Notes under the pieces: model-generated
The model's input: the letters and a program-made list of their open reading frames with translations, nothing else
What the model was told of the DNA's origin: nothing
The model's database searches: none
Assembly (NCBI GenBank): GCA_026991575.1
Contig: JALXBF010000118.1
Location: 1-64,000 of the forward strand
Reading direction: 5' to 3'
DNA from: Planctomycetota bacterium
Lineage (GTDB): Bacteria > Planctomycetota > Planctomycetia > JALXBF01
Length of the DNA: 64,000 nucleotides
Program-made: the position numbers and the translations under genes
In this document: positions 18,427 through 61,702 of the stretch, in pieces
How the letters are laid out: every line of letters starts with the position of its first letter
How positions within the stretch are numbered: the first letter of the stretch is position 1

Positions 18427-18846
18427 ATGAGGCTGTGCATCCACATCCTCGCCTCAGTGTGCCTCGGGGCGCTCGCCGCGACTCTGTCCGACCTTGGCCT
18501 GGGACGCCTCCATCGTCCAGCTCGGGCGGAGCTCGAACGGGTGACCGGCAGCTCGTTCTACGAGACCGGGGCCTATCTGGTCATGTGTCCCGATCCGTTC
18601 AACTGCTTGGGCCAGGGCAACTGCGCGTCTCGATCCTGCCTGAGATGTCCGGTTGTCCTGAACATGCAAGTGGCCAGCGGCGGGTTCAACCGTATCATCG
18701 TGACTACCCAGCAATGTCCGCCGGGCGTGCAGCGGGGTGTCTGTGTCACTGGTCCCAATGGCTGCATGTGCGACGGTCCTACTTTCTCGAACGTGCCCTG
18801 CGGCTCGTACAACCAGATCGTGATGTTTGATGATCAGTCAGGCTAA
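18427..18846 (+). CDS. Exported Cys-rich mini-protein or RiPP-like precursor (locus A)
   Basis: RBS GGGGAGGA; hydrophobic N-terminus; ELERVTGS at residues 35-42; 10 Cys after that motif. Confidence 0.75.
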   Translation: MRLCIHILASVCLGALAATLSDLGLGRLHRPARAELERVTGSSFYETGAYLVMCPDPFNCLGQGNCASRSCLRCPVVLNMQVASGGFNRIIVTTQQCPPGVQRGVCVTGPNGCMCDGPTFSNVPCGSYNQIVMFDDQSG

Positions 18847-18899
18847 GGTCTGCAAGACGAACGGGGACCGCCTCTGGACTGGTGCGTGAGGTAAGGTGC

Positions 18900-20291
18900 A
18901 TGTCCGGAATAGCGCTACCTTTTGTTTTGTGTGCGTTGGCGTTGGTGCCGGCAGGGCAGTTTGTCTTGAGATCCGAGGGGAAGGAGTCGAACTGCGCGGT
19001 GGTGGCGTTAACCGTGTGCCTACGCCTGTGGGGACACGACGTCAGCTGTGCGGCCGTGGCGAAGGAACTGGGCTTGTCCGATGGGAGTCGCGGCAGTGCG
19101 GATGCGGTGTCGCTTGCAGACCTTGAGCGTGCGGCAAGGCGTTGGGAGCCAAACGTGGAAGCACGGAAGGCAGGCCTGGCCACGCTTGCACGCGTCCCAC
19201 TCCCGGCCGTCGCACATGGCGTAATCACCGCCGACGGTCAGCCAGAACGACTAACCGGCGGGCATTACGTCGTTCTGCTGCGGCTTGACGCAGAGCAGGC
19301 GGTCGTGGCAGATCCGCTTACGATGCAGGTGGCCACGGTGCCGAGGTCTAGATTTGCTGCCTTCTACGACGGGTATGTGCTGGCGAGGGAGCGAAGGGGG
19401 GCCCGCTGGGCTATCCTCTTCGTATGTTTCACCACACTGGCCGCCGTTCTGCTGAGGCTGGCAAGACGTCTCGGGATCAGGGAAACCATATCCATCGTGC
19501 TTGCGTCCGGCCTCGCCCTTGGTACGACTGCCGGCTGCAGCCGGGAGCCGACACCGTTCTCGCCAGCGGAGGAAGGGGAGAGCCCACTTGAAGCGCTCCC
19601 CGCACAGCTTGATCTGGGGACAGTGTCGATCGGTGAGACCGTGACCAGGAGTGTTCGCCTGCGGAACGTCAGCTCAAAGCGGCTGCGTCTGAAACTGGTC
19701 GATCCCGGCTGCGCATCGTGCACGGCAGAACTGGTCCAGACGGAGCTGTCACCGGGAGAAACGACGGAGCTGCGTGTCAGTGTGGCATCGGACCGCGCGC
19801 CGGCTGGCCCATTCTACCGGACGATCGGGGTGGCGACCCGGGAAGGTAAGGCAGTACTGACGATCGAAGTCTCTGCCCTTGTGGAAGGATTGAAAACGGA
19901 GCCGTACACCTTCCGCTGCGGCTCGAACGCGGAGACACCACCGCCTCTCAAGGGCAAACTTATCCTGGCCGAGCGACTTGCGTCAGACTCCGTCTCCCTG
20001 CCCGAGGTCGAACTGGAGGACCTGTTGGCCAAGCAGACGTCGACGTTCAAGCCCTGCATGGCCGTGGGTGGAGAAGCCACCTGGGGGCCGTGGCAGAAAG
20101 TGCGTCTGCCCATGCCTTGCTATGAGCGGGAGTTTACGGTCCCACTTGTCTGGGTCAAGGACGCTGCGTGTGTTCCCAGACAGGTCCTGGCCCACGTCGA
20201 ATGTACGGTACGCGGTCAGCGAATACGCCACCAGACACTACTGCGGATCGTTCCCGCTGTAACCGTGACGGCTCGCCCCGCGGACCGATGA
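18900..20291 (+). CDS. Exported C39-family cysteine peptidase fused through TM segments to a DUF1573 Ig-like domain
   Basis: Signal peptide; SNCAVVAL (Cys), GHYVVL (His), ADP (Asp, 16 residues after His); two hydrophobic segments; LDLGTV...RNVSSKRLRLKLVDPGCASC...LSPGET; no ABC domain. Confidence 0.8.
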   Translation: MSGIALPFVLCALALVPAGQFVLRSEGKESNCAVVALTVCLRLWGHDVSCAAVAKELGLSDGSRGSADAVSLADLERAARRWEPNVEARKAGLATLARVPLPAVAHGVITADGQPERLTGGHYVVLLRLDAEQAVVADPLTMQVATVPRSRFAAFYDGYVLARERRGARWAILFVCFTTLAAVLLRLARRLGIRETISIVLASGLALGTTAGCSREPTPFSPAEEGESPLEALPAQLDLGTVSIGETVTRSVRLRNVSSKRLRLKLVDPGCASCTAELVQTELSPGETTELRVSVASDRAPAGPFYRTIGVATREGKAVLTIEVSALVEGLKTEPYTFRCGSNAETPPPLKGKLILAERLASDSVSLPEVELEDLLAKQTSTFKPCMAVGGEATWGPWQKVRLPMPCYEREFTVPLVWVKDAACVPRQVLAHVECTVRGQRIRHQTLLRIVPAVTVTARPADR

Positions 20292-20317
20292 GCCGGCACG
20301 TCGGGGAGGTAGACGAG

Positions 20318-21436
20318 ATGAGTGGAAGCGAGGCTGTGGACAAGATCGACCGAAGGGCCGCTTGCCACATGCTATGGGTCACCGTGTGGACCCTCGGGAC
20401 GGGGTTGGCGATTGCGAGCCAGGCGCTGGCTGCCGAAACCGGGCCAAGACCTACCAACAAGCCAGCGAAGCTGTCGCTCGAACAACTGCGTGACTGTCTG
20501 TCGCGGTTCTACGCCCAACTGCACGCCTTGGACGTTGAGTACGAAGTCCTGGACAGCCCGGACTCAGAACCTCATCGGGTGCGATACGCCTTCAAGGGTG
20601 ACAAACGCTACACGGCGCGCACCGGTCCTGGCCAGGAGGAGCCGGAATTTGTTGGCGGCATCGTCAACGGCACGTACTGGTATCTGCAGCCGGAGCAGCT
20701 TACGGCCGGCATCGTGCCTGTCGAGCAGGCAGGCGACGCACTTCACTACGACGCATTTGTGGATGCCCTGCACATTGCCTTGGCGGATGAGGCGAAGTCG
20801 GAGGCGTACCTTCGTCCCCGGTTTCTGCCGCTGGCGCTGGACGCACCAACAGCGCAATGGAAGGTCCGCCCGAAGCTGGAAGAAGTCGATGGACATCTGT
20901 GCCATGTGCTGGAGGGCAAGGCTCTCACGCTGTGGGTCGACACGGAGCTCGGTTGTGCTCCGCGTTATGCCGAGTTGTACACGGAAGTGGATGGCACCAG
21001 GCGGCTTGTGGGATCGTACCACTACGCCGATCTGGCCGACGCTGGTAGCGGGGTCTATTTGCCACGGCTGGTGGAGATCACTGCGTACTCGGTTAGCGGC
21101 AAGGAGAGCAGGCCGAGCAGACGGCAGACCCTCAAAGTGTTACGTATCGCCGTCGGGGACGATGTGCATGACGATCTTTTCGAACCGGCGTTTCCCCGGG
21201 GCACGACGGTGCTCGATGCGACGAAAGGGGAACGGTACATCGCCGGGCCGGCCGACGCGGGCGTGACACGATTGACTGAACAGGCGCGCGACGCGCTGAC
21301 GCGTCCGGGCGCACGAGGGCCTGTCGGCCCCCGGCCGACTACGTGGATCGTTCTCGGGGCCGGTGTAGCGGTCGTGGCCATCGGGTTGCTGGCGCTGTGG
21401 ATCCGAAGCCGAGCCGGCGCTAGGGGCGGCTCGTAA
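20318..21436 (+). CDS. Exported protein with C-terminal TM anchor, possibly LolA-like fold (locus A partner)
   Basis: RBS GGGGAGG; signal ending ALA; EEVDGHLCHVLE...LWVDTELG...DDLFEPAFPRGTTVLD pattern; C-terminal TM plus basic residues. Confidence 0.7.
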   Translation: MSGSEAVDKIDRRAACHMLWVTVWTLGTGLAIASQALAAETGPRPTNKPAKLSLEQLRDCLSRFYAQLHALDVEYEVLDSPDSEPHRVRYAFKGDKRYTARTGPGQEEPEFVGGIVNGTYWYLQPEQLTAGIVPVEQAGDALHYDAFVDALHIALADEAKSEAYLRPRFLPLALDAPTAQWKVRPKLEEVDGHLCHVLEGKALTLWVDTELGCAPRYAELYTEVDGTRRLVGSYHYADLADAGSGVYLPRLVEITAYSVSGKESRPSRRQTLKVLRIAVGDDVHDDLFEPAFPRGTTVLDATKGERYIAGPADAGVTRLTEQARDALTRPGARGPVGPRPTTWIVLGAGVAVVAIGLLALWIRSRAGARGGS

Positions 21437-21484: not shown

Positions 21485-23554
21485 ATGTACGGGGAGTGGC
21501 GTCTTGCAAGAACGGTGATCTTTACGGCGGCCGTCGCCCTGCCGTTCTACTGGTGGTGGTTTGGACCTGTTGTCTCGTCGGACCAGTGGGTGGTCCGCGG
21601 CTTACTGGCGGGGGCGGTGTACGGCGCCGTGGCCTGGTACGCGTGGGTCCGTCGGTCGAGTTCCGGCTCTGGTCCGGATAACGATATCGTCGAGGGAGAA
21701 CGCGACGCCGATGCTCAGGCAAGTACGGCCATGCGGCTGGGTAGGCGGTTCGCCATTGGTGTTGCCGTATTGCACGTGCTGCTCGTTGTCTGGATTGCCT
21801 GGGCACACAGCCCCACAGCGCACGAGACGCGCTATCTCGTGGCCGGTCTGAGCCACTGGGAGACGGGTCATTTCGATGTAGCCCGCGTGAACCCACCACT
21901 GGTACGGCTGTGGCAGGCTCTTTTTCCCCTTCTGGCGGGCGCTAAGACGGACTGGTCTGTGTATCCAGCCGATGAGCCGACCGCTGGCCTTGGTGGCTAT
22001 CGGCCCGACCTGGTGATGACAGCACGCTGGATCAGGCTCAATGGTGAAGCAAGCCACTGGTATGTCTTTCTTGGCCGCTGCGCGAACATACCGTTGTCAC
22101 TGCTGGGGGCGTGGGTATGTTGGCGGTGGGCGTTGGAGCTCTTCGGGCTGCGCGCCGCATGCTGCGCGGTGACGCTGTGGTGCCTGTGCCCGTTCATGCT
22201 CACTTACGCTGCACTGACGAGCCCGGATCTTGGCGGCGCTGCACTCGGAATCGCAGCAGCCTACGTGTGCTGGCGCTGGGCACGCGTGCCCAACTGGTCC
22301 CGTGCCCTGGCGTTCGGCGGTGCGCTCGGTGCCGCGATCGCTGCACGCACGACGAACATTGCGCTGTTGCCCGCCTGCGTTGCCTGTGTCTTCACGTCGA
22401 GCCGACCGCGGCGGCGTCGGGCTCTGGAGCTTGCGGCTGCCATGGGCGTCGCACTGCTGGTGCTCAACGCAACCTACGGGTTCGAAGGCACGTTTCGGCC
22501 GCTGGGCTCGTACCAGTTCATCAGTCGCTTCTTCGCCGGGCATAACTTTTCCAGACCGGTGGTGGGCAATCGCTTCCGAGACCTGATCGGTTGGCTGCCG
22601 GTGCCCCTGCCAGAGGATTTCGTCAAGGGTGTTGATCTGCAGAAGGCCGACTTCGAGGGCGTATCGCACTGGCCATGGTCCTACATGGCTGGGGTCTGGC
22701 GCGAACAGGCGTGGTGGTACTTTTACCTGTATGCCCTTGCTGTCAAGCTGCCGGCGGGGTCGCTGATCCTCCTGGCGGCTGCCGTGATTGGATTTCTTGT
22801 CCGAAAGACGGCACGGTCGGATGTGATAGCAGAGGTACTGCTCGCCTGCGCCATTGCGGCCTTTTTCCTGTTGGTTAGCAGCCAAGCTGGGTTCAGCAGG
22901 GAATCACGTTACATCGTGGGGGTGATCCCGTTTCTCTATGTGTGGGGTAGCCGCCTCGCGATCAATCCATTGCGTCGATCAAAGGAGCCGGTGCTGTGGC
23001 CAGTTCTGGTGACGGTCACTGCCGTCAGCGTGCTCACCGTCTACCCGCACTGCTATTCCTATTTCAATGCCTTCGTAGGAGGTCCATTCGGTGGTCCCCG
23101 CTGTCTTTGGGGCGGTAATATCGACTCGGGCCAAGATGCGGTGTATTTGTCACGCTGGGCCAAAGCCCACCCGGAGGCTCGGCCACTGTTCGTTGTTGTC
23201 CAAGGGCAGACGGTCTATCCGATCCATTTAAGCGGCCTGCGTGACTGGCAACCGATCCCGGCCGACCCGCGCAGCCCGGAGCCACACCCGAAATACCCTC
23301 CCCGCCCGGGCTGGTACGCGATCAGCGTCAGCGAACTGTACTATCCATCGGATGCGTACGCATACCTGCGGCAGCTCAAGCCCGTCGCCTATGCCGGCTA
23401 CTCGATCTACATCTTTCACCTGACCGAGCGCGACGTTGAAGCGCTAAGGCCGCTGTTTGCTATGATCGAGTCGCAGTCCGAACCAGATGAGCCTCCCGGC
23501 TCGGACAGTGCGTCCGACACCGGCGATTCGCCGTCCGACACGTCGCGGGATTGA
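21485..23554 (+). CDS. Polytopic GT-C glycosyltransferase (ArnT/PMT-like, GT39/GT83) (locus A)
   Basis: HSPTAHETRYLVAGLSHW...VNPPLVRL, LPVPLPEDFVKGVDLQ, WWYFYLYALAVKLP, RYIV, SYFNAFVGGP...NIDSGQD; many TM helices. Confidence 0.85.
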   Translation: MYGEWRLARTVIFTAAVALPFYWWWFGPVVSSDQWVVRGLLAGAVYGAVAWYAWVRRSSSGSGPDNDIVEGERDADAQASTAMRLGRRFAIGVAVLHVLLVVWIAWAHSPTAHETRYLVAGLSHWETGHFDVARVNPPLVRLWQALFPLLAGAKTDWSVYPADEPTAGLGGYRPDLVMTARWIRLNGEASHWYVFLGRCANIPLSLLGAWVCWRWALELFGLRAACCAVTLWCLCPFMLTYAALTSPDLGGAALGIAAAYVCWRWARVPNWSRALAFGGALGAAIAARTTNIALLPACVACVFTSSRPRRRRALELAAAMGVALLVLNATYGFEGTFRPLGSYQFISRFFAGHNFSRPVVGNRFRDLIGWLPVPLPEDFVKGVDLQKADFEGVSHWPWSYMAGVWREQAWWYFYLYALAVKLPAGSLILLAAAVIGFLVRKTARSDVIAEVLLACAIAAFFLLVSSQAGFSRESRYIVGVIPFLYVWGSRLAINPLRRSKEPVLWPVLVTVTAVSVLTVYPHCYSYFNAFVGGPFGGPRCLWGGNIDSGQDAVYLSRWAKAHPEARPLFVVVQGQTVYPIHLSGLRDWQPIPADPRSPEPHPKYPPRPGWYAISVSELYYPSDAYAYLRQLKPVAYAGYSIYIFHLTERDVEALRPLFAMIESQSEPDEPPGSDSASDTGDSPSDTSRD

Positions 23555-26063: not shown

Positions 26064-26298
26064 TCACGGCTGTGGTTGACACAAGCACTCGTTGGCAACT
26101 GCTTTGCAAAAGCATCCGACGCAGTCGTCGCCTCCGATGGCCGCACATCCCGCGTAGACCGGACACCCAGGCGGGGCTACTCCGGAGCAATCGTCCCGGC
26201 TTGTTTCGGCACATTATCGGCCCTGTTGAGCGTTGGCCTACGCCCGGGGCTCTTTGACTACAAGAATACACAGACACACAGCCAGGACCGGATTTCAT
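26064..26298 (-). pseudogene. Decayed Cys-rich precursor gene (locus C), absent from the ORF track
   Basis: Manual translation MK/PVLAVCLCILVVKEPRA*ANAQQGR*CAETSRDDCSGVAPPGCPVYAGCAAIGGDDCVGCFCKAVANECLCQPQP*; stops at 26238-26240 and 26214-26216; Cys spacing matches 57417-57713. Confidence 0.7.
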
Positions 26299-48136: not shown

Positions 48137-48207
48137 GGTGCGAGTTGAGACCGAGCGCAGGGCCGAGGCGGTGATAGCACCTGGTAGGTAAGAGTGGCCG
48201 GCTCGAG

Positions 48208-48660: not shown

Positions 48661-49172
48661 ATGACGGCTGCGACTTCTCCCGTGTCCCTTCAAGCATTAC
48701 CCACGCCGCCGAACCCCGCCTCGATGCTGGCCCCACGCCATCCATCTGCGCCCCTTGAACGGTTGCGCCCCGGACGGAGTTCCGCATGATCCCGAATCGC
48801 CTCTGGTACTGCGCCCGTTCCAAACGTGCCGCGGCTCGACATTGCACCGTCGCAGCACGCGGTGCCTGGCACAGGGCATCGCGGCTCATCGGTGGTTCGG
48901 TCATGTGGTAAAGGCGTGAGCGCTCGAACTGGGTTCCGGCACCTCCGCTGCGCGCAGAAAACTTCCAATCCAAACTGACCGAAACGTCCTGCACGGCAGC
49001 CGCCTATCATGGGGACTCCGCAAGAAGTTCCGGTTGAATCGGGGCTACCGCCACCAGTTCGCGCGAGCAGTCGACACCGCCGTAAGCGGTTACGTTCTGG
49101 GGGAATCCACGAACTACGCGATGTCAGCGTCAGCGCGTGTCGCGTTTACGTCCGGAAACCGTGTGGTCGCGT

Positions 49173-49610
49173 TCACTGCTTATCGGCGAGCCACGTTGCG
49201 ATGGCAGAGATCCGCTCTACCCAGAGCCATACCGAAAGTCTTGGTCGCATCATGAGGACCAGGGTAGTTCCACGCCGCTCGACTCCGATTAGCTCGAGGC
49301 ACACTCCGGACTCGTCGAGCGTGCGCGCGGATCTATGTCGACAGACGAATCTGCATTCGACGACGGACTCCAGCACCACGTCCAGGAAGCGGGTGTAGGC
49401 ATGCTTGCGACGCAGCGATCCCAGAGCCCACCAGACGGTCTTTGCATGCCCACCCCTACCGGGGTCTGCACGTCTCCAAAGCCGCATGTGAAACGCACGC
49501 CGCGATGGAGAGTAACGCATCTCATCGATTCCAGTGTACAACCGGGTCGGACCGACCAAGATTCGCTCGAGCTCATCCACCGAGGACAGCACCTGACTTT
49601 TTCTCGGCAT
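49173..49610 (-). CDS. Putative immunity protein, paralog of 50260-50715
   Basis: RBS GGAGG; 145 aa; shares Y...F.(M/L)RL...(V/L)VL..V..C...C...VE..G...S(V/I).L.V..I.A with the upstream ORF. Confidence 0.55.
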   Translation of the reverse strand: MPRKSQVLSSVDELERILVGPTRLYTGIDEMRYSPSRRAFHMRLWRRADPGRGGHAKTVWWALGSLRRKHAYTRFLDVVLESVVECRFVCRHRSARTLDESGVCLELIGVERRGTTLVLMMRPRLSVWLWVERISAIATWLADKQ

Positions 49611-50259
49611 GTCTCGCCTCCGGGCGCGAAGGCTTCAGTCGGAGTCATCCAGGTAGCACAACTCTTCGAGATCGGTTCTGTCCCGGATGCTGGAAGGAGA
49701 ACCAGGCAATCGCCCGCCCGTTCGCACGACATAGGCCAGAACGAGGCGGCCGTATAGGCTCCTCCGGCCCTGGCTGAGGCCGTACCAGGTAGACGTACTT
49801 TGCCAGGGAAGGCTTCTTTCTCCCAGCGTGGCCGCAGAGCTTCTGTTGACGCGGTCGCCTGAGGCCGTCATAGCGATGTTGCAATGTTCCGCCCCCACAC
49901 GAGGACAGGTTCAGCCCGGAGCCGCCTACAGCGAAACGGGGCCGGACCGGTGCACGGAGCCTACCTCTGGGATCAAGTACGCCACAAGGGAGCGATTGGC
50001 GCTCGTCCGCGGGGGTTGGGCGTGCGCGTGCACGGGTGGCAGCACCTCCCCCGGCAACCCGTACCCGAAACAGCCACAACCGGCGATCCCCTAGCTGGTG
50101 AGGGCATGCGTTTGCCGCCGCGGACACTCGACCGGCCGGGAAGTCGCTCTTACAGCGACGAGTTTCGTGCGCACGCGGTCTATCCCATTCCGGTCGATGT
50201 GCCGCCGAGGGCCACAACCTCCTCGCACGCCGTCCCATACGCCCATCCAACCATTGACC

Positions 50260-50715
50260 TCACTCGCTGGCTGGTGCACGGGGGAACGGTTCCTCCGGAC
50301 GGCAGGCAACCAACTTGGCGCGGATGCTACGCACCCGCAGCCGAATGGAGACAACGTAGTGTGTCAGCAGCCAGAGCACTCCCGGTGCGCCCTGTTCAAC
50401 CCGGCTGAACTCGAAGCTAGCGTACTGTTCGAGAAAGGGCTCGTCACAGATGATCTTGCAGTCCTCCACGTCCATGAGTACCAACTCGAACCGGTCAGTG
50501 GCCGTTTCCCGTGACCGACCACGCTCCGGCACGGCCTTGGCACGTGCGCGCCCCTCAAGCAGATCGGCAAGCCACGGCGCCCTGAGCCGTAGTCGAAATA
50601 CGCCAGTTTGATCGTCATAGGCAATGTCGTGTAACCCAAAGTTCGCGTCGTATAATGGTGCGACTTCTCGTGCCAGCGTCGGAAAGTCTGCGTACGCGCC
50701 AAGAATCCAACCCAC
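50260..50715 (-). CDS. Putative immunity protein downstream of an Rhs toxin-tip remnant
   Basis: GTG with GGAG; 151 aa; lies directly after the candidate toxin C-terminus. Confidence 0.6.
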   Translation of the reverse strand: MGWILGAYADFPTLAREVAPLYDANFGLHDIAYDDQTGVFRLRLRAPWLADLLEGRARAKAVPERGRSRETATDRFELVLMDVEDCKIICDEPFLEQYASFEFSRVEQGAPGVLWLLTHYVVSIRLRVRSIRAKLVACRPEEPFPRAPASE

Positions 50716-50759
50716 TGGTCCCGTCTCCGCTCACAGCCGGTTTCATCTTTCCCACTTGA

Positions 50760-51140
50760 TTATCTGCCCCATGGCCAATGCTTGATATTGAGTGCGTGTA
50801 TGCCAATGTGGGGGCACGGTCGACCGCCAAGTCGCACGGGGTGATAATCAATGCGGGCCCGCGGCTTCATGTTGCCTGGCCCGATCTGGATGAGACCACC
50901 GCTGCCCATCCTTCCACCTACCGAAACTCCCTCTACAAGTATTGACCAGTTTCCCAGCAGACACAAGTCGATACCTACGACGACGCAAGCCGCCGCGGGC
51001 CGATGATTGCGATGACTTCGTCGGCTGCGTTGTCAAGCGTCTGCCAGACGGGGTTGTTTGTCGGGGCGGTGTCCTCATCGGGATCGATCACCTTCACCGG
51101 CCGGTGCAACAGGTCGTACTCATAGCGCACCGTGTCGCCG
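50760..51140 (-). pseudogene. Rhs/YD-repeat fragment joined to a candidate toxin C-terminal fragment
   Basis: TVRYEYDLLHRPVKVIDPD...PVWQTLDNAADEVIAIIGP (YD repeat), then in another frame RIDYHP...PHIGIH...KHWPW*. Confidence 0.6.
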
Positions 51141-51227
51141 AAGGTAGCTGCGTGCTTGCGAAGGGGGTGGAGAGCAACACCCTGCCGAAGGGATGGGCGA
51201 ACCGAGCTTGCAGCTTGCGTTGGTAGA

Positions 51228-51539
51228 CGGCAGGGGCGGGGTTTATGGCCCCCTGCCGCTCCGTTGATGGGTAGCACCGGCGGTACGGGGTTTGTTTTTC
51301 TTCCCCGTTAAGAATCGCCGGACGTCGCGGACGCTGTCCGCGGCGTCGCGGGGTGGCATCGGGCCCCCCCCGGGACGACAGCGCAGTCTCTCTGTGCACA
51401 GCCCCCGCCCAGGGGAATCCGACCACGGGGGCCGCGGGCGGGATCGACCCGCGCGCGGGGGGCAGGGGAAAATCTTTTGGAGATGGGCCTGCGCTATCCA
51501 TCAACCTTGCGGGCGCAGGGCATAAAGCCCCCTGCCTGC
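51228..51539 (+). repeat. Structured ~310-bp dispersed element, copy 2
   Basis: Same block order as 17009-17286: GTTGATGGGTAG, AAGAATC, GACGYCGCGGAC-loop-GTCCGCGGCGTC, GCGGGATCGACCCGC, GCGCTATCCATCAACCTTGCGGG, GGGCATAAAGCCCCC. Confidence 0.85.
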
Positions 51540-51810
51540 CGATTGAAGCAGGCTGCTGGGTTGATTCGGCAATTCCGGACGCAGCATCCGGGCCACTCGT
51601 CGTCGAGTGCTGTGGCGTGCGGGGCTGAACCATCCGCTGGTCGGCACACGCGCGGGTCCTGCCCCTCGCCGCAACCACACCGGCCGCGACCGTCTCCGCA
51701 CCTGTCGCTGGAATACCGATCTGCTCGCCTGGCGGCTGGGGGCGCCGGCAAAGCCGCCTGGGCGCCGGTTTGGTCGGCCTGCGTCCGAGAACCGTTTACC
51801 CCGCCGGCTA

Positions 51811-51850
51811 CCGTGAACTCGCGGGAGGGGGGCATAAAGCCCCCGCCGCC
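51811..51850 (+). repeat. Solo terminal hairpin of the dispersed element
   Basis: CCGTGAACTCGCGGGAGGGGG is identical to 16999-17019; loop CATAAAG as in the right-hand hairpins. Confidence 0.75.
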
Positions 51851-52541: not shown

Positions 52542-53036
52542 CTACTGTTCTGCCGGGAGTCGTCGCCAGACGAGCACACTGAACTCGCCCTCTTCGCCGG
52601 GGAACATGCCGTGCACCTCGTAAAAAGTGTCCCGTGTGACGCGATAGACGTAGCGGCCCCCGGCCGCATTCTTGACGATCCCGGCTCCTGGCCCCTCGAG
52701 GACGGTGTAGTCGAAGTAATGGTAAATCGTCACATCACCCACTCGCTCCAGCCGAAAGCGATTTCTGTGCGCCCGGATCTTCTCGCCAGTGTGGTACATG
52801 TAGTACTCAACGATTTCTGTGTCTCCGCGCACCGTCTTCACGACGCGAATCACCCCACCCATGATCCAGTTGCCCGTGTACGTCTCCCACCGCCCCTGCA
52901 ACAGGTCGAAGTCTTGCTTGAGCTGGGCGTCCTCAGGTGGAGCCGCTCGGTGAGCCTGGTGAGCCGCCGACAGGATGCCCGCAATGCACGCTGCCCCGAA
53001 AAGAGTAGCCACCAAGCTCTTGATGGGCAGATACAT
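52542..53036 (-). CDS. Small secreted protein, TIGR03067-like N-terminal motif
   Basis: RBS GGGAGG; signal peptide; LKQDFDLLQGRWE. Confidence 0.65.
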   Translation of the reverse strand: MYLPIKSLVATLFGAACIAGILSAAHQAHRAAPPEDAQLKQDFDLLQGRWETYTGNWIMGGVIRVVKTVRGDTEIVEYYMYHTGEKIRAHRNRFRLERVGDVTIYHYFDYTVLEGPGAGIVKNAAGGRYVYRVTRDTFYEVHGMFPGEEGEFSVLVWRRLPAEQ

Positions 53037-53494: not shown

Positions 53495-54025
53495 CTACCT
53501 GCGCTTCGCCTCCGCGCCGGCGGCCGCCGCATCAGCGGGCTGCTCGCTGTCATTGCCGCCCTGGCCCCCACTCCGAGCTTCCGATGTCACGTCATCGGAC
53601 GTTGGTCCCTCGGCGGCAGTCACCACGATCGTCCCCTGAACCACGTACAGCTTCCGCCCGTCGGTCACATAGACCTCCACAGGGTACGAAAAGCTCTCCC
53701 CAGCACGCGGCGTATGAACACGAAAGCGGATCGCCGTACTTTGTTGCGGAGCGAGCCGGACCGGCACGCTGCTCACCCTCCGCATTGCTCACCCGCCGTT
53801 CGTCCCGACCACCACAACCTCCTCCTCGGCCACGTTCCGCACGGTCAGCTCCACCACCATCGGTTCCTCCGGAACCGGCGCACGCACTTGTACCTCAGAC
53901 GGGTCAAGCACAGCGGGCAGCAAGCTGCTCGGCAGCCAGGCTGCCACACCGGCAACGAACACGCCAGCCAAAACCATCGCCGCCCAACCGGGTATCGACT
54001 GGATCAGAAAGTTAACCCTCCGCAT
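53495..54025 (-). CDS. Membrane-anchored DUF1573-like Ig-fold protein, candidate selenoprotein (Sec79 encoded by TGA 53789-53791)
   Basis: ORFs 53789-54046 and 53495-53785 are in the same frame; the TGA aligns without gaps to the Cys of GCA in the locus A DUF1573 domain; SECIS-like hairpin follows; RBS GGAGG before ATG 54025. Confidence 0.7.
53745..53788 (-). promoter_or_regulatory. Candidate bacterial SECIS element
   Basis: After TGA: lower stem TGCGG/CCGCA and upper stem AGCG-T-GCCG-GTC-CGGC-T-CGCT; apical GGTC 26 nt from the TGA. Confidence 0.6.
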
Positions 54026-55892
54026 CGTAACGCACCTCCAATACACGCCTCGAACCCTTCTGCACCGAATCGCCCGGAGCAGACTCTTGCGTCTGACGGG
54101 GCTTCGCTGTCCCCCACAGGATCCGGGCCAGGCGGGCCGATTCTTCAGGCGTAACCTCGTAGACTAGCACGGCTGCTCCCAACGTCGCAATGGGACGCAT
54201 GTGGCGCGTGTACTCGATCACACGAGACGTCGGCACGTTGGGATAAAGTGGCATGTATCGGTGGGGATCGATGATGTAGATCCCCGCCGGCGGTCCCTCG
54301 CCCCGGAACTCATCCGGCGGCAGCGGCCGCGGCACATCGATCGGCCAGTGGCTTCCTAGCCCGCAGGGATCCTGAAACAGTGCGTACACTGTGCGGCCTG
54401 CATCGCGGTAGCGCTGCACCAACTCTCGTATGAAAAAGTAGTCTTCCCCACCAGAAACCGACGGGCCGGCGAGCTGCAGATAGCCGGACTTGCTGCCGCC
54501 CACCAACTCGTTCAGATGTCCGTGAAAGTGCGGCGCTACACTGGCCACGGACCAGATCTGCCAGCTGAGCAGCCCGGCCAGCGCCAACGGGCGCCACAGC
54601 CCGAGGCGCCAGCCGGCGGCCAGCCCGCTCGTCCACACGATGAGGTACGGCAGCACCGGTGTCGTATACCGCAAGTGAACAGTGAGCGTCTTGTGGTACG
54701 AAAGCGTAGCCAGGACCAGCAAGACGGGGCCAAGTTCCAGCAACGTGGCACGTAGGGTGCCACCGCGCGGGCATAGTAACGCCGCGATCGTTCTCCACGC
54801 AAAGCACAGCCAGAACGCAACCGGCAACTTCGCCATCAGTCCGTACAGGTAGAAATACCATACACCTCCGTTGTGACGTCTACCTGCCACCCACGTGTCC
54901 CGAGGCACCCTGGTATCATGCAGTTGGAGATCCAGCCCAAGCACATAAGCATCGGGCAGCGGCACCGGGAGCCTGTTTACGACACCGCCCGTCACCGTTG
55001 CAGCCAGCGTTTGCAACCGGCGCAGCGAATCGCTACGAAACTGGTACGACCCCAGCGTTTGCAGGCGAGCGGTCCCCGCGTAACCGCAATACACGACCGT
55101 GCAGGCAACAGCCGCGGCAAAGACCAGCAGCACTGTACGCTCCAGTGCCCGTTGACGCTGGCGGCGCACCACGGCGATCCCTACCTCAACCAGCTCAACA
55201 ACCAGGTAAAACACTGCCAGCAACAGCACGGTGAACTTGGTCAACAGCCCCAGACCAACGGTGAGCCCGAACGCAGCCGCTCGCCCCGTACCAGGCTGTT
55301 CTCGGTAGCGGAAGTACGCCCAGCCGGCTGCCGCCGCCATCGCCGCCGTCAGACCGTCCGGGTTCAGGCACCCGGACCAATGCAGCAGTTCGGGATTCAG
55401 CACGTAGAACAAGACAGCTAGCAGGCCCGCTGCAGGCCCATGCGCTTTCCTGCTCCAAGACCACACGGCAATCGGCCCGATCCCGCAGGCAAGGGCAAGC
55501 GCGACGCGCGCCCACCTGAGCCAGCTCAGCGACTCGGGCAGGTTAGCCGAAAACGTAGCAATGGCAAACGGGAAGACGGTGTACGCATCCGGTCGGTCGA
55601 CGTAGGTGGTCCAGCTTTCCCAGAGGTTCTTTCCCTCCGGCACGAGCCAGACCGAACCCAGCCCGGCCACGATCCGTGACAGCGGTGGGTTAACCGGGTA
55701 AATGTCAAACCGGCTCAACTGGTAAATCGCGTAGGCCGAACACAGGTGCGCCGGCTCATTTACGTTCGGCGCGTGGACGGTTGCTGACCAGAGCACCGCA
55801 GCAAGCCACAGGGCCACCAATGTGCCGACGGTCACCCGCTCAAGAACGGACGGCTGTGCTACAGTTCCTCGTGCGCCTGCGTCAGGGCTCAT
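54012..55892 (-). CDS. Polytopic GT-C glycosyltransferase (ArnT/PMT-like) (locus B)
   Basis: RBS GAGGAGGG; HAPNVNEPAHL...VNPPLSR, LLTKFT, LPVPLPDAYVLGLDLQ, WYFYLYGLMAKLP, NELVGG; paralog of 21485-23554. Confidence 0.85.
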   Translation of the reverse strand: MSPDAGARGTVAQPSVLERVTVGTLVALWLAAVLWSATVHAPNVNEPAHLCSAYAIYQLSRFDIYPVNPPLSRIVAGLGSVWLVPEGKNLWESWTTYVDRPDAYTVFPFAIATFSANLPESLSWLRWARVALALACGIGPIAVWSWSRKAHGPAAGLLAVLFYVLNPELLHWSGCLNPDGLTAAMAAAAGWAYFRYREQPGTGRAAAFGLTVGLGLLTKFTVLLLAVFYLVVELVEVGIAVVRRQRQRALERTVLLVFAAAVACTVVYCGYAGTARLQTLGSYQFRSDSLRRLQTLAATVTGGVVNRLPVPLPDAYVLGLDLQLHDTRVPRDTWVAGRRHNGGVWYFYLYGLMAKLPVAFWLCFAWRTIAALLCPRGGTLRATLLELGPVLLVLATLSYHKTLTVHLRYTTPVLPYLIVWTSGLAAGWRLGLWRPLALAGLLSWQIWSVASVAPHFHGHLNELVGGSKSGYLQLAGPSVSGGEDYFFIRELVQRYRDAGRTVYALFQDPCGLGSHWPIDVPRPLPPDEFRGEGPPAGIYIIDPHRYMPLYPNVPTSRVIEYTRHMRPIATLGAAVLVYEVTPEESARLARILWGTAKPRQTQESAPGDSVQKGSRRVLEVRYDAEG

Positions 55893-56038
55893 GTTGCCCC
55901 TCCTCGCGTGCAGGCTCGTCCGACTGGCTGGCGCGGCTACCACAGGTGATTTGCCGGCCGTTTGGTCATGCCCACCTCAGACCCGTGGCCTGGGCCGCGA
56001 TCGCCGCTTTGTCCATCGCGTGTCCTGAGCCCGACGGT

Positions 56039-57163
56039 TCAGGACGTCTTGAGGGACCGTAGCCAACGGCCCAGTCCGATACCAGCCAGCAACAGCGCGA
56101 TCGCGGCCAACGCCAGCTTGATCGGACGAAGGCTCCCAGGCTCCGGTGGCCCCGTGACAACGTCGTCCGGCAATCCAAAGTGCCGCAGCGAAAGTGCGTC
56201 TGCACTCAGCTCGGTGCCAAGCACCTCGTACTCTACCTCCTCCTTCGATACGTAGTAGTGCCTTGCGTCGGAGCTCTCCAGCAGCATCTCAAAGGACACC
56301 GACTTCGCCAGCGGGATACGCGCGACCTCCACGTACGAGACCGCTCGCTCAATGTTCGACACGCCGCCATCGACAACCTCTCCGCGGTACGTTTCTTGCA
56401 AAGGCAAGTACGGCGGTGTGGTCTGCAGCACGAAGCGTCCAGACTTGTAAGGAAGCAGATCTAGTCTTTCTGGCTCTGGAAGTGCCGACAGATCCAGTTT
56501 CCATTCAACAATCACCCCCTCATCCTTGGCCTCCACCCGATCAAAACAAATATGGCCTCCCTTCGCCTGGCGCAGCCACATTCGAACGCCCCGAGGCACG
56601 GGCGTGCAAAACGGTCTCTGGCTGCCGTGACACCCCAAGACGTGTTGCGTCAGGTAGTCGACGAGACTCGGCGGATCATCCGGATCGTACACGTTGCGGA
56701 GCACATTCGTGATGATCCAGCCCCCGCCGCCGCTTCCGCTGAGTAGGAACGCCTTCCCGTTCCGCACGACCCCAGCCCTCCTCCTCGTGGCTGCGTTGAC
56801 TTCCCCGTCCCGGACCGGTACAACCTTCGTCTCCTGCTCCTCCCATCGTACTTCCGGCCACTTTCCCACGAATCGTTCGATCACCGTCCATCGCTCGTGC
56901 CGGACGACCCTCAGCGGTTTTTCCTCAGTATGAGCTGCGGCACTGTGGCTAGGTGCCGTTCGCACCGAGATGATCCGCTCGCTCTGGAAGCGCCGCTCGC
57001 CAGATAGCGCGAGCCTTTCGAGCTCCCGGCACCAGTCTCTCCAGGCTGCCAGGATAGCGTCCGGCGAAACAGAAGCCTGTCCGCTGTTTGGTGCAGGTGG
57101 TCCAGTCGCATGACACAGGAGTACCAGACCGCAGCATACTCCGGTCACTGCAGTGACAGGCAT
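56039..57163 (-). CDS. Exported protein with C-terminal TM anchor (partner class, locus B)
   Basis: RBS GGAGG; hydrophobic N-terminus; tail DALSLRHFGLP plus TM and basic residues. Confidence 0.75.
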   Translation of the reverse strand: MPVTAVTGVCCGLVLLCHATGPPAPNSGQASVSPDAILAAWRDWCRELERLALSGERRFQSERIISVRTAPSHSAAAHTEEKPLRVVRHERWTVIERFVGKWPEVRWEEQETKVVPVRDGEVNAATRRRAGVVRNGKAFLLSGSGGGGWIITNVLRNVYDPDDPPSLVDYLTQHVLGCHGSQRPFCTPVPRGVRMWLRQAKGGHICFDRVEAKDEGVIVEWKLDLSALPEPERLDLLPYKSGRFVLQTTPPYLPLQETYRGEVVDGGVSNIERAVSYVEVARIPLAKSVSFEMLLESSDARHYYVSKEEVEYEVLGTELSADALSLRHFGLPDDVVTGPPEPGSLRPIKLALAAIALLLAGIGLGRWLRSLKTS

Positions 57164-57416
57164 TTCATCACCTCCACCCTAACTGCGCGCTCGACCCGCA
57201 TCATCCCTGCGAAGCGCCCCAAGCCTCCGCTGCCCACACAGCCGAACTGTGGTCCATGTCCCGTATAGCGTACCTCGCTTCGGCGGCGCGGACGTGGCTC
57301 CAACGGGGGCAACGCGCCGTCTGCCGCGCGTCGACGGCGTCACCTCGGCGGTGGCGTTGTCGTTAGCCCCGTGGCAACAGCGTGCGTCAGCTCGGTTTCG
57401 AAAGACGACAAGGTAC

Positions 57417-57713
57417 CTAGGATCCAGGGACTGTGGCACCCTGAGGGAGTTCGCAGACACATTCGTCCCGGCTTCCAATGTCACATACACAGTCGGTGCA
57501 TTTCTTGTCCTCGGTCCGGCAGCCTCCTCTACAAGCGCGGACAGCAAGTGTGCAGTCGCGATCGCAGACTGCATTACCCTCGCAAACCGGATCGCGTGGA
57601 TTGGGGTTCTGGCCATACAGAGGGCGCTCCCACGGCAAGAAGGATCCGATCGCGATCCCGATGGAAACGCACGCCAACGCCTCGACGACCATCGAAACGC
57701 TCTTGCGCAGCAT
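57417..57713 (-). CDS. Exported Cys-rich mini-protein or precursor (locus B)
   Basis: RBS GGAGG before ATG 57713; hydrophobic N-terminus; core C-x5-C-x3-C-x6-C-x3-C-x6-C-x2-C-x-C-x7-C-x-C. Confidence 0.75.
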   Translation of the reverse strand: MLRKSVSMVVEALACVSIGIAIGSFLPWERPLYGQNPNPRDPVCEGNAVCDRDCTLAVRACRGGCRTEDKKCTDCVCDIGSRDECVCELPQGATVPGS

Positions 57714-57788
57714 AGCCAATCCTCCGACACTTTGCCACATTGCGCTGGATCCTTAGAATGGCTGCCCAGAAGTCTGCGTAAAGCGACA

Positions 57789-58647
57789 CTATTTTCCTGT
57801 TGGGAAGCGGAACGGGCAGCGGGGTGGGGCTCGTCCGCGTCCCGGTTCGGGGCTCGAAAAATGCCATACGCGGCGAACTCGCCCGCCGGGCCCAACCAGG
57901 AACGCACTCGGCGATTGGCCCGGGCACAGGGCAAGCTCCTCATTCTGCACGGTCACACGGTCTCGGCCTACGTAGAGTAGCCGGACCGGGTACCCTTCGC
58001 GCTCTGCCCGATCGCCCAACCGGCGAGCCCACGCCACACATCTTGGACACCAGTCGCGCACTAACACGTAGAGTGCTGGCCCATCTGGTCGGTCGTCGAC
58101 CAGCCGTACCGGGAGACTCTTCCCAGACCAGCTATCGGGATCAACGTGAACAACAGGTGCCTCCAAATGTTTCCACACGCCTTGCCCCAGTGCCAGCAGC
58201 TGCGCGGGAGGTGGTTGCAGCGCCCACACGGCCAGAACCATTCCCAACAGCAGCGCTGCCGTAGGCGGAAACGCTTGACGGATACGGCGTGCCAATGTAC
58301 CAACTAGCGCGGCAAGCACCAACGCATCGATGGTGGCAATGGCTGGCGGCGGAACACGCAGCCGGCCAAAGCACCCGCAAGAAGGGTACCCCTGGTAGGT
58401 CAACCACAGGGCTACGAGGAAAAGAAGTCCGTAGACGGCGAGGACCAGAGCATGCACTGCGCGCGCCTGGCTTCGGTACAGGGCAGCTGCGCCGACAGCT
58501 AGTTCCACAAACGGCCATACGCCCTGGGCCGCGCGGAGGGACCACCACTCAAAGTATACCCCCCCCAACTCCACCGACGACCTTTGTTAGGCCGGCCACA
58601 ACCAGAAGGAAACCCGCAACCTTGGTCACGATAGACGACATTGGCAT
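57789..58647 (-). pseudogene. MauE/DoxX membrane protein fused to a thioredoxin-like CxxC domain, frameshifted in a G8 tract
   Basis: N-terminus MSSIVTKVAGFLLVVAGLTK in one frame; VELAVG...YPSCGCFG...WCPRC in the next; removing one G at 58559-58566 restores a single ORF. Confidence 0.75.
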
Positions 58648-60559
58648 GGGTACTTCCCACTGGCACGAAGGCCATTCGTCTGCAACCGCGCATACTTTAC
58701 CCGGTGCGTCACGTCGCGTCAAGAAGCTTCGCAGCACAGGGGAACGCTTCCGCTTTCGAATGGGACCGTTCGAACACGCCGTGCGATCGGATCGTCCTTC
58801 GCTTGGGCCCTGCGCAGTAGGCGCAGCACCCGGTGGGGACAACCGGGCAAAAGGAATTCGGGCCGAACGAGGCGACCGGATGCTGTAGCCAGGCGCGAAG
58901 GGTCAGTTGGTACGCCCACGTACTACCGGTCCAAAGCGGCAGGAAGTCCACCGGCGTACACGCGTCATCCGCGTTGGCGGGCAGCCGTGCTAACGCAAGC
59001 GCAGGTAGCGGGAGGGTCACGCCTGGAGTTGATGGCGATGGCGAGCTTTCACAAAAGGCGCCTCCGTGCCGTAGCTCAGGAAAACAAGAGCACAGGCGCG
59101 GGGGCGACCCATGAGCCGAGAAGACCGGAGGCTGACGGATGTGTGTTGTGAGGCATCGTGGCAGTTCGCACCGGATCTGGCGAGACCAATTCTGGCCGGG
59201 AGGTATCGCTGCCGCCGCATGCATCTGCGATAAGTTCGAGGCGCCTGGGCGCTGACTGTGGCCGCCATCACGCTGTACGGAGCCTGCCAGTGCGGTTTAC
59301 TGCGACAGATATGCTCCTGGCCAGAGCCATTTGCATGAACACCAGTGCCACGGACTCGGCTCTGGAACGCCTCGGCGCCGTATCCTGGATCCTGTCGGCC
59401 TGGTCCTTCTCGTACTCGTTCACGCATGCCTTACGGGCCCTCACTCCCCAGGCGAGGCGTGATTACGTGCTGCTTGTTGCTACAAAGCTTGGAAGAACCT
59501 CTCCGACGGCTGCTGACTCGCGGTCGTCACAAACTCTTGGCCCGCTGCAAAGAAGAGGCCGATAAGATCATCGGCTATCTACGCAGGATCTCCAAACACG
59601 CGGGCGGCGGCGCTACGGTCGATATTGGTGGTGCTTCAGTCCGGTGGCCGCCCGACAGCGAGTAGTTCGCGGCGATAGCCCTCGCATACCGAACAACGCC
59701 TACGGACCGGCTGCCCGCGTTGTTGCATGTCCACGACGGTTCCACGTTGATGCTGAGTTGGACACGGGGACGGAAGGTCCAAGTGCGGGCCAACGGGGCG
59801 GCTGAGTTATCGGTCGGAATTTGTGGCATGGAGTGACGCGAGATTGGCAGCGTGGTGTGTCCGTCTTACGTAGTTCTGAGACGCCACTGGGACGAATGGT
59901 CTCGTGCGCAAAAGAGACGACCATGCCCCGGAGGCGGCGTCAGCCAGTTACTGTTCGCTGTGCGGCATACAAGATATGGCCTTCGGATCGGCGTCGTCGG
60001 AGTGGCGAGCCTACCTGCTCCCAGGTGTGCCGTGGCAGGCGACAGGTGTCGGAGGCAGAGATGGGACCCGGCCGGCAACATCGGTCGCCAGATTTCCCCA
60101 ACTGTGACCCCGGCCGGCGGGGACTGGTCCCGGCGTGTACAGGAGCAGAGGGGCGCCGGTTTTCCAGGCGGCGGTGGCTTCTATGTCGCGGCGCCTGTTT
60201 GCACGGGACGCTATCCGGCAAAGTGGGGTGGGCAAGAGACAGCTCCGGTGGGGGCTGGCTGGCTTTCTTCGGCCAGGGGGCGGACAGAATCGTCCGTTCG
60301 GCTTGGGATCCGGCATACGGCATTGACGAGGGTCCCAGGGTGTGGACCATCAGGCACAGTCTCAGGCTGGCCGGAGTGGTCCGTCCAGTGCATGGACGCA
60401 TTCCTAAGACCAACGTGGAGATGGTCGTTAGGATGACCGTCTCCAGTGGGCCGTACCGATGGTGCGGTGAGTGCCGGGTGAGACGGACCGAGCGGAAGTA
60501 GACGTGTATGCAATCGGAGACTTGCACAAGAGGAACAGGCGATCTGCGAGGAGGTCGCT

Positions 60560-61702
60560 ATGCCATGGGTTGCCATCGTAGGTATGATCTTCAGCGTGTG
60601 GTGGACCGGCCAGCAGGGGCAGGCAGAGTTTCCCCCGCCAGAGCCTCAATGGCGGGTGGTCCCGGCGGCGAAGTATTTCGGTCTCCTGAGGGAAGCTCGC
60701 CAAACGCTCGCTAACGCGGTAGATCCCGCGGCATGCTGGATGTGGCGAGCCATGGGGACAGAGTTGCCGCGGGAGCCAGAGCGCGGCGTGCTGCCACTAC
60801 TGCGGGTGCTCCACATGAACGGGCGCGTGCGGGTGGACTTCTTTCCTCCAGGAACGCAAGCCACAAAGGATGGATCGTTGTTGCCGATAGTGAAGCAGCT
60901 AAGGTACTCGCTCGTTGTGGCCGGTGACCGCGTGACACGCATCGAGTATCTCCACGACACGGAACGTGTTTTGCCCGAGGATATGTCGGATAGGCCCGGC
61001 TATGCTGAGGGAATGCGCCGCTTCGTGGACAGTCTACTGATGGGACTGGAGTCGGCTTTCCGCCTCTATGAGCACCAATTGGATGAACTTGCTCAGCTGC
61101 CGGGCGCGAGGCTCTATGTCGATCAAGCGGAAAACCCCGTATACATCACGGTGTCGCTGACGCCGCCCGGCGGAGGAAGGGTTGCGTGGGGGCTCCGGCT
61201 AGATCCGTCGCGCGGATACGCCCTGTCTGAGGGCGTCGGCTGGGAGTCAGTTGATGGCGCACGAACGATTTTTAGATTCCGGGTCGCGCTTGAGCGACAT
61301 CACGATTCCTGGCGACCGGTGCAATTCACGGCGGAGGTCGCCCCGGCCGACAGCTTAAGGACTGGATTGGGTATACGGAGTCAGCCAGGTCCCTGGCGAT
61401 TATGGTGGACTGCCCAGTATGTGCCACTGGTAGCGGACGCCCGACTGTTCACGGCTGATGGCATTGCAGACGAGATTGGCTACACCGTTGTGGTGCCGCG
61501 TGGGGCAACCGATCTCGCACGGCGCGGTGGCGGGTTAAGCCGCCGACAGCTGACCACCTCGCCACATGGTTGGGACACTGGGAACCATCGGTGGGGCCTG
61601 CTCGCAGTGGCGGCGGTCGGGTGTTTGCTTGCGGCTGCTGTGGTTGTGGGCTTCTACTGGTACCGGCGCAATTCTGCTCACGGTCCTGATCGGAGCCATT
61701 GA
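60560..61702 (+). CDS. Exported protein with C-terminal TM anchor (partner-like class)
   Basis: RBS GAGGAGG; hydrophobic N-terminus; LRLDPSRGYAL; DARLFT; C-terminal TM plus YRR. Confidence 0.7.
   Translation: MPWVAIVGMIFSVWWTGQQGQAEFPPPEPQWRVVPAAKYFGLLREARQTLANAVDPAACWMWRAMGTELPREPERGVLPLLRVLHMNGRVRVDFFPPGTQATKDGSLLPIVKQLRYSLVVAGDRVTRIEYLHDTERVLPEDMSDRPGYAEGMRRFVDSLLMGLESAFRLYEHQLDELAQLPGARLYVDQAENPVYITVSLTPPGGGRVAWGLRLDPSRGYALSEGVGWESVDGARTIFRFRVALERHHDSWRPVQFTAEVAPADSLRTGLGIRSQPGPWRLWWTAQYVPLVADARLFTADGIADEIGYTVVVPRGATDLARRGGGLSRRQLTTSPHGWDTGNHRWGLLAVAAVGCLLAAAVVVGFYWYRRNSAHGPDRSH

Follow-up and report, generated by a model that had tools for sequence, protein, structure and literature searches.

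Gene clusters for sublancin-type glycocins combine a precursor with a double-glycine leader, a C39-ABC exporter, a cytoplasmic glycosyltransferase of the GT-A fold and the DsbB-type protein BdbB. According to the main text of a preprint, MauE can substitute for DsbB in Escherichia coli and requires its CXC motif for this activity, a chemistry demonstrated for two MauE proteins, neither of them from the locus described here (bioRxiv 10.64898/2026.03.05.709764). The same source lists as typical features a CXC followed by FG, a lysine in transmembrane helix 1 (TM1) that is conserved near the quinone site and a glutamate in TM2, and finds a thioredoxin-type domain fused in 8.2% of MauE entries. 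In Streptomyces, candidate clusters for peptides that are synthesized ribosomally and modified post-translationally, reported with decRiPPter, contain mauE and in some cases mauD next to a precursor that has 8 or more Cys, while further mau genes are absent (PMC7794033). Catalogued selenoproteins of the DUF1573/OS_HP2 type carry a UGC motif, in which U is selenocysteine (Sec) (PMC9312934, PMC13188914, PMC1976440), and planctomycete selenoproteins of other families are on record (PMC4807772). Here, we describe locus B, a five-gene locus of a Planctomycetota bacterium, which codes for a MauE-like protein, a Cys-rich precursor, a membrane-anchored partner, a GT-C glycosyltransferase and a DUF1573-like protein. 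It lies in the window, that is, the whole 64,000-nucleotide stretch that was analyzed (positions 1–64000 of contig C118). The locus is a real feature: a disulfide-rich peptide cluster with a dedicated oxidase is of a known kind, and the form of its putative selenoprotein is new. In the following, G000 is the source genome (assembly of 4.96 Mb, 97.8% complete), C-numbers are its contigs, G001 is a genome from another genus of the same family, G002–G004 are other genomes and L-numbers are fetched loci.

Locus B and its paralog on C28

All five genes are present on the minus strand in the order MauE-like, precursor, partner, GT-C and DUF1573-like; the positions of the open reading frames (ORFs) agree with Pfam and motif matches on this order, which a first-pass annotation of the window had proposed. 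The features are:

58694..58722, minus: sigma-70-like promoter match, 9 of 12 consensus positions only, 47 nt upstream of the mauE start
58549..58647, minus: N-terminal fragment of MauE, 32 aa, TM1 with the conserved Lys, then a stop (frameshift)
58559..58566, minus: G8 run, site of the mauE frame shift, identical in the run X1 contig
57789..58574, minus: rest of MauE (Glu, CGCFG) and putative thioredoxin-like domain with WCPRC, 261 codons, PF07291 at 27.8 bits
57417..57710, minus: precursor of the exported mini-protein, 97 aa, ATG at 57710 with a GGAGG site, alternative start at 57740
56039..57163, minus: partner, 374 aa, with signal peptide, LolA-superfamily beta half-barrel (AF2 model) and C-terminal TM helix
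54012..55892, minus: GT-C membrane glycosyltransferase (PMT_2-like by Pfam), 626 aa
53495..54025, minus: DUF1573-like Ig-fold putative selenoprotein, 176 aa, anchored by an N-terminal TM helix, motif G-U-A without a second Cys
53789..53791, minus: in-frame TGA, probably read as Sec, same codon and column in homologs
53746..53776, minus: bSECIS-type hairpin by the model of PMC13188914, GUC loop beginning 28 nt past the UGA, free energy of about −15 kcal/mol

Much of what had been proposed for the single genes held up. The 97-aa ORF contains 10 Cys in its mature part (C5C3C6C3C6C2C1C7C1C) and one in the signal, belongs to a class that ends in CxxCxC-x-CxC, is acidic rather than cationic-amphipathic and has no double-glycine pro-leader. 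A lipobox was considered and rejected, since the Cys is located before the hydrophobic stretch. The partner has an N-terminal signal and a C-terminal TM helix, the GT-C assignment is confirmed by Pfam PMT_2 (34 bits, cut-off 26.1, E 4e-8), and the DUF1573-like gene, noted as a Sec candidate overlapping the GT-C stop, starts with an ATG at 54025, 14 nt inside the end of the GT-C gene (stop at 54012), and contains an in-frame TGA conserved in homologs. An intact paralog of the whole locus with conserved gene order was found on C28, with identities of 42% for MauE, 43% for the precursor, 33% for the partner and 55% for GT-C. This is the true paralog of locus B, not the neighboring locus A described below.

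Precursor, partner and DUF1573-like protein matched no Pfam family at E 0.01 and no NCBIfam family near its cut-off. No homologs of the precursor were found among longer proteins by protein search, and the Atlas gave no usable match. Neither precursor nor partner has a MauA- or MauB-type match in Pfam or NCBIfam; mauA was not searched for elsewhere in the genome.

The mauE gene is distributed over two frames. From position 58647, 32 codons lead to a stop, and a shift at the G8 run opens the 261-codon frame. The first-pass annotation had described a MauE-thioredoxin-like protein with CGCFG (CXC then FG) and WCPRC; both motifs are there, the single reading frame is not. The Pfam match (cut-off 27 bits) extends over profile positions 44–124 only. 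Because the Logan contig of run X1, which is not independent of the assembly, is identical to the window at 53613–58800 without a differing letter or gap, the frameshift is not an error of assembly. TM1 Lys, TM2 Glu and CXC occur in one four-helix chain on C28, C104 and C151 and fail to do so in locus B, where the Lys helix is cut off. Since this first helix is lost, the locus B copy of MauE is probably inactive. Phase variation at G8 is not supported, given that the genome contains 96 G/C runs of at least 8, 46 of them within called genes. A contig of run X2 that spans the G8 run has 2 gaps. In G001, a precursor of the GG type (L132, about 3840–4300, on G001:C20) carries a frameshift at T3G8; its operon also contains MauE-CxxC, partner, C39 and GT-C.

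A candidate selenocysteine in the DUF1573-like protein

An in-frame UGA is found at a single alignment column, after Gly, in five paralogs of the source genome (locus B, C28, C64 and two on C129) and in the G001 ortholog. The C28, C64 and C129 proteins are 18–39% identical to the locus B protein. Homologs on C63, on C150 and in other genomes carry at this column the first Cys of a CxC motif. All six UGA sites and selD passed a test for a bacterial selenocysteine insertion sequence (bSECIS), as did 175 of 1194 ordinary TGA stops; the test called for a loop of 3–9 nt with G(G/U) at its start, 16–37 nt after the UGA, and a minimum free energy of −7.5 or lower (PMC13188914). Between locus B and C28, the ten hairpin codons are identical at 28 of 30 nt, compared to 194 of 408 nt outside, and 8 of these 10 codons are the same, compared to 14 of 45 for identical residues elsewhere. 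The source genome contains selA, selB, selD and tRNA-Sec, and selA is also present in G001. By these comparisons, the reading of the TGA as Sec is strongly supported.

The putative Sec motifs of the six proteins are U-A-M, U-G-I, U-G-I, U-G-A, U-A-S and U-Q-Q, with the second Cys absent in all. The locus B protein reaches 14.2 bits against PF07610, below the cut-off of 26.1, and has no match to NF041425, the DUF1573 selenoprotein family. It is homologous to the true DUF1573 of locus A (E 1e-5), with U aligned to the first Cys of the latter. That these proteins represent a new selenoprotein variant is well-supported by their sequences. A search of low sensitivity, covering 40 relatives, 300 genomes of the phylum (13 candidates scored each) and G002–G004, returned no Sec form from outside the family. 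Since gene callers split the selenoprotein at the UGA and the codon-based gene caller overlooked most precursors, annotation tends to hide the system.

On C64 (2304–3632), a transposase-like ORF occupies the expected place of the precursor in a third B-type locus, which has kept its partner and Sec-DUF gene. A VKOR match in G002 (C17:3198–3569) contains 2 in-frame TGA codons and is possibly a VKOR selenoprotein; this genome has selA.

Composition of the cassettes in this genome and in other Planctomycetes

A scan of the source genome for signal-bearing Cys-rich ORFs returned 29 rows, 19 of which are in cassettes or cassette-like. Forty partner-like ORFs were gathered, at least 4 of them false, and C63 alone holds six scanned precursor-partner pairs in tandem. 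Over 19 pairs, precursor and partner similarities are correlated (rho 0.28; 1 of 5000 permutations). Beyond this genome, a profile of the cassette-type MauE matched 8 of 40 relatives, and 7 of the 14 loci found there show the exact order MauE, mini-protein, partner-like protein. Of 121 genomes in the class, 90 had a match to Pfam MauE. Among the listed matches, 40 loci were fetched, non-randomly, as the 20 best-scoring and 20 full-length lower-scoring ones; the latter group has a precursor directly downstream in 13 cases. The mini-proteins of the cassettes have 6–20 Cys in many spacings, and the mature Cys count is even in 51 of 56 curated precursors (binomial p 1e-10). Near these 56, we found DUF1573 in 43 cases, DUF1559 within 6.5 kb in 25, GT-C in 14 and C39 in 9; the source genome as a whole contains 34 DUF1559 matches, which together with the Atlas taxa of the partner identify it as planctomycete. 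The core of the system is precursor plus partner, DUF1573 is usual, and MauE, GT-C, DUF1559 and C39 vary. The count of cassettes and the recurrence of the gene order, both of which the first-pass annotation had named as checks, agree with its proposal of a modular system with a common core, repeated in the source genome and in other Planctomycetes.

Besides the housekeeping lnt, the source genome has two divergent Lnt-like genes, which on C63 and C129 border DUF genes together with GT2, an arrangement also seen in G001. The genes at C63:11529–13163 and C129:920–2563, and one at L070, are accompanied by GT2-methyltransferase fusions as well as by another type of GT-C, and come after DUF1573-like genes. 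At L092, L094 and L100–L104, best-scoring MauE genes (about 250 aa) stand beside genes for 700–1300 aa and other Cys-rich small ORFs, an unannotated arrangement that looks like metal efflux.

Locus A, also in the window, served as comparator:

18427..18846, plus: precursor with a different Cys class and a pro-leader of the double-glycine-like type
18882..20291, plus: C39 peptidase fused to DUF1573 (CxxC), by Pfam
20288..21436, plus: anchored partner, LolA-like fold predicted with low confidence (pLDDT 49)
21485..23554, plus: GT-C, identity to the locus B enzyme 26%

It had been proposed that loci A and B are paralogous and share four components, to be checked by pairwise alignment and structure prediction. 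In these comparisons, GT-C (26% identity, E 1e-48) and the DUF1573-like proteins (25%, E 1e-5) are homologous by sequence. For the partners, no similarity was detected in sequence or profile (hhalign, E 0.23–0.48); they match by model only, and the precursors gave no BLAST alignment (E 0.5) and differ in Cys spacing, so the proposal stands for two components by sequence, for the partner by predicted fold and not for the precursor. Before the locus A precursor lies a (GAA)6 run at 18343–18360, the only run of five or more in a scan of the genome, 65 nt upstream of the gene and after a TTGACA.

A further claim, that locus B carries a redox toolkit in place of the C39 peptidase, did not survive. 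MauE and C39 occur together near 4 of the 56 precursors, C39 only near 5, MauE only near 38 and neither near 9. They are fused with DUF1573 in a single 785-aa protein at L067, and at L132 in G001 a single run contains MauE-CxxC, precursor, partner, C39 and GT-C. Locus A, for its part, also has a redox-type DUF1573 CxxC. What C39 follows is the pro-leader: all 7 precursors with a motif between signal and first Cys that we take to be of the double-glycine type have C39, compared to 2 of 49 without it (Fisher p 2e-7). Because of this association, C39 is to be seen as an add-on for another job and not as an alternative to MauE. The real swap concerns the domain fused to MauE. Among 26 cassette MauE proteins, CxxC lies downstream in 10 and a DUF1573 CxC in 12; a single protein carries both, 4 carry neither and 1 is unclear; from this split, CxxC and DUF1573 CxC are alternative fusion partners. 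The CxxC of the fused domain is conserved in 4 of 4 paralogs. The source genome contains five MauE-CxxC genes (4 found by Pfam, 1 on C63 by motif), all in cassettes, and at 97.8% completeness neither DsbB nor VKOR was found in it. The proposed MauE-type disulfide formation is in line with the preprint on MauE (bioRxiv 10.64898/2026.03.05.709764).

For the locus B partner, the AF2 model (pLDDT 82) matches 4z48 with Z 12.4 (rmsd 5.4, 206 aligned), 3bk5 with Z 11.8 and LolA3 with Z 11.4, and Foldseek returned LolA3 at E 2.6e-8. The low-confidence model of the locus A partner (pLDDT 49), on which Foldseek was also run, matches the same three structures with Z 13.8, 13.6 and 12.5. A shared LolA-like fold without sequence similarity is predicted for the two partners. 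One profile family includes the partners of locus B, C28, C64, C63, C129, C150 and C75 and a window gene at 24837–25859. Database homologs are scarce (1 non-self for each partner, 5 representatives with the partner profile), and Atlas matches are planctomycete clusters. The gene at 24837–25859 (minus) is a second B-class partner of the window. Upstream of it, at about 26066–26340 (minus), lies a decayed precursor; its 3′ half matches the C150 precursor and its 5′ part has stops. The partner-like gene at 60560–61702 (plus), which shares 28% identity with the partner in the C6 cassette, is an orphan: no adjoining precursor was called.

GT-C enzymes of the PMT/ArnT-like type have an acidic DE-type motif in the first outer loop. 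The locus B protein has NE at this site; C28 and several paralogs have DE. A profile search found no solved GT-C relative. In the source genome, 15 of 18 strong matches of this GT-C subfamily have a partner-like gene within 4 kb, and GT-C directly follows the partner in B, C28 and A. The subfamily profile matched 37 of 61 genomes.

In the region of locus B, three sigma-70-like promoter matches were found where 1.2 are expected, terminator matches were no more frequent than by chance, and two metagenome scans found no related locus. Among the sequencing runs listed as containing DNA of the locus, none is an RNA data set, and X2–X5 contain only small shares of it. Downstream, at 52542–53036 (minus), a 164-aa signal-bearing ORF has no Pfam or NCBIfam match and was not found after the C28 paralog. 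The segment 53223–53666, with the 3′ end of the DUF gene and downstream DNA, is 90% identical to C122:817–1262, a remnant of another copy. Farther away, an Rhs/YD-repeat remnant and, downstream of it, a 151-aa ORF occupy 49024–51130 and share 91% identity with an Rhs region of C185, and repeated elements at about 48200–48770 and 51000–51850 have copies on many contigs.

Proposed pathway, rival readings and known systems

How might such a cassette work? We consider it moderately probable that locus B is one version of a polymorphic extracytoplasmic maturation cassette for a disulfide-rich mini-protein and its cognate anchored partner, operating as follows. The precursor would be exported via its signal peptide and cut by signal peptidase; because it has no pro-leader, no C39 would be needed. 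MauE would pass electrons from its CGC to quinone and oxidize the fused CxxC domain, which in turn could introduce five disulfides. With the mauE of locus B broken in this population, the job may fall to intact paralogs on C28, C63, C104 or C151. The fusion patterns suggest that the anchored DUF1573-like protein, with a lone Sec as a fast nucleophile for thiol exchange, shuffles or relays disulfides. GT-C, judged by its family, could glycosylate either the mini-protein or the partner with a sugar taken from a lipid-linked donor, and the LolA-fold partner may bind the mature mini-protein in its cavity, as RseB/MucB do with peptides, to hold, sense or neutralize it at the membrane. So read, the cassette links several unknowns in one pathway. 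DUF1573 gains a concrete hypothesis, as a domain that alternates with the CxxC domain on MauE (a new DsbB substitute) and whose first Cys may be Sec; C-terminally anchored planctomycete proteins of 330–450 aa gain a predicted LolA-like fold and a candidate ligand from the neighboring gene; and the mini-proteins, with their range of Cys numbers and spacings, form a natural library of disulfide scaffolds. A bolder version would be a class-wide code of cognate pairs, in which hypervariable mini-proteins are each held or read by their own LolA-fold receptor and served by plug-in extracytoplasmic modules (MauE, DUF1573 as a non-thioredoxin redox domain with a lone Sec, C39, GT-C, an Lnt-like acyltransferase). 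We hold this code only tentatively and think it somewhat doubtful; if it were true, the selenoprotein would be the first dedicated one that we could find in the maturation of a ribosomal peptide product, and DUF1573 would function as a DsbA-like relay.

Several observations weigh against the proposed pathway. The locus B mauE is frameshifted, its fused CxxC domain has no Pfam thioredoxin match, and the weak matches of this domain in the PDB (11 of 12 thioredoxin-type) lie at E 0.37–1.5. The candidate bSECIS hairpin by itself is no more stable than shuffles (z 0.28 and −0.61). MauE is regarded as a generalist oxidase and so may serve the whole envelope (bioRxiv 10.64898/2026.03.05.709764). Of the 20 best-scoring Pfam MauE loci of the class, 17 are not in cassettes and 3 are; outside the source genome, a precursor-like ORF was present in only 9 of 20 fetched GT-C-anchored loci, and the GT-C profile labelled none of 40 MauE-anchored loci, so GT-C is not universal. 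The match between precursor and partner clades is not proof of pairing, because co-duplication of neighbors could give it. Finally, the 56 precursors were picked by eye, this list and the double-glycine pattern were both defined after inspection of the data, and loci were selected non-randomly via MauE or DUF matches.

Among the other explanations, the one that comes nearest is a narrower form of the pathway just described: the mini-proteins would be antibacterial or kin-discriminating peptides, the partners their immunity proteins and the whole an extracytoplasmic glycocin-like cluster. Hypervariable precursors in about 19 copies, one-to-one tandem pairs with partners, IS insertions and decayed copies, and the Rhs remnant 2.5 kb from locus B all point this way, as does the resemblance of precursor, oxidoreductase, glycosyltransferase and anchored protein to the sublancin cluster. 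However, precursor B is acidic and not cationic-amphipathic, locus B has no ABC exporter, and partners without an adjoining precursor could equally be orphan immunity genes or receptors; we judge this explanation rather unlikely. A role as structural or adhesive envelope proteins, with the partner as the glycosylated, displayed subunit and the mini-protein as an accessory linked by disulfides, on which DUF1559 pilin-like proteins might act, would account for DUF1559 near 25 of 56 precursors, for GT-C directly after the partner in B, C28 and A and for the Lnt-like paralogs and GT2 that accompany some cassettes. Locus B itself lacks DUF1559, Lnt and GT2, and the extreme divergence of the partners (2 database homologs, 5 by profile) suits ligand recognition better than a scaffold, which makes such a role quite improbable.

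Alternatively, the cassette could be a stress-protection module for a vent habitat, in which the Cys residues serve, like those of bufferins, to bind metals or sulfur species. A signal peptide, a Cys-rich precursor and a DoxX-clan membrane protein are described as the bufferin core, too (PMC12452194), many other planctomycete MauE genes lie beside large genes that, judged by size only, are of the efflux type, and the best-matching DNA comes from a hydrothermal vent metagenome, possibly the source sample. On the other hand, no MNIO/DUF2063 is found among the five locus B proteins, disulfides are favored by the oxidase encoded alongside and by the even number of Cys in 51 of 56 precursors, and high sequence diversity is unexpected in simple chelators, so that we give metal binding little credence. 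We give less still to the idea that locus B is a decaying copy, with a frameshift in mauE and a TGA that arose as a nonsense mutation. The frameshift is real in the data and other broken cassettes exist (C64 with an IS, C161 and the precursor near 26100); yet the TGA is common to paralogs of 18–39% identity and to another genus, with conserved hairpins, the precursor, partner and GT-C genes are full length, and a relative at about 93% identity spans partner, GT-C and DUF gene.

In a literature search that did not extend to subscription papers and the supplements of the MauE preprint, we found no published description of the cassette. The maturation cassette that we favor can be set against its known relatives as follows. 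Like the Streptomyces mauE/mauD clusters, it places mauE next to a Cys-rich precursor; those clusters are candidates only and come from another phylum, and the text consulted mentions no LolA-fold partner, GT-C or DUF1573 selenoprotein. Bufferin clusters share the signal-peptide-bearing Cys-rich precursor and the DoxX-clan membrane protein (PMC12452194); locus B differs from what is described there by the absence of MNIO/DUF2063, by the 6–20 Cys in variable spacing across the cassettes and by the addition of partner, GT-C and DUF1573. In common with the MauE pathway are CGC-FG, TM1 Lys, TM2 Glu, a fused domain that may be of the thioredoxin type and a host without DsbB or VKOR matches. The main text of the preprint is silent on Planctomycetes, DUF1573, C39 and operons; in the present case, MauE goes with cassettes for Cys-rich mini-proteins and has DUF1573 as an alternative fusion partner, with the B copy frameshifted.

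The glycocin clusters of the sublancin type likewise have a Cys-rich precursor, dedicated disulfide oxidoreductases, a glycosyltransferase and a membrane-anchored cognate protein, and share C39 and the double-glycine leader with locus A. In contrast, the present cassettes would export by signal peptide without an ABC exporter, and they have a membrane GT-C in place of GT-A, MauE in place of BdbB and a 350-aa LolA-fold partner; locus B has neither the double-glycine leader nor C39. With the DUF1573/OS_HP2 selenoproteins, the DUF1573-like protein has in common that the putative Sec takes the place of the first Cys in CxC, that Cys homologs exist and that a bSECIS is present. Unlike the catalogued proteins, it has G-U-(A/G/Q) and not UGC, lacks the second Cys, scores below the Pfam cut-off, does not match NF041425, and has expanded to five copies located in mini-protein cassettes. 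The predicted open beta half-barrel of the partner (Z 10–14), finally, is that of LolA3, DUF1329, TP_0789-like proteins and RseB/MucB, and what sets it apart from this superfamily is a C-terminal TM anchor, an identity of 8–12% and the occurrence of divergent paralogs by the dozen, with a mini-protein gene next to each.

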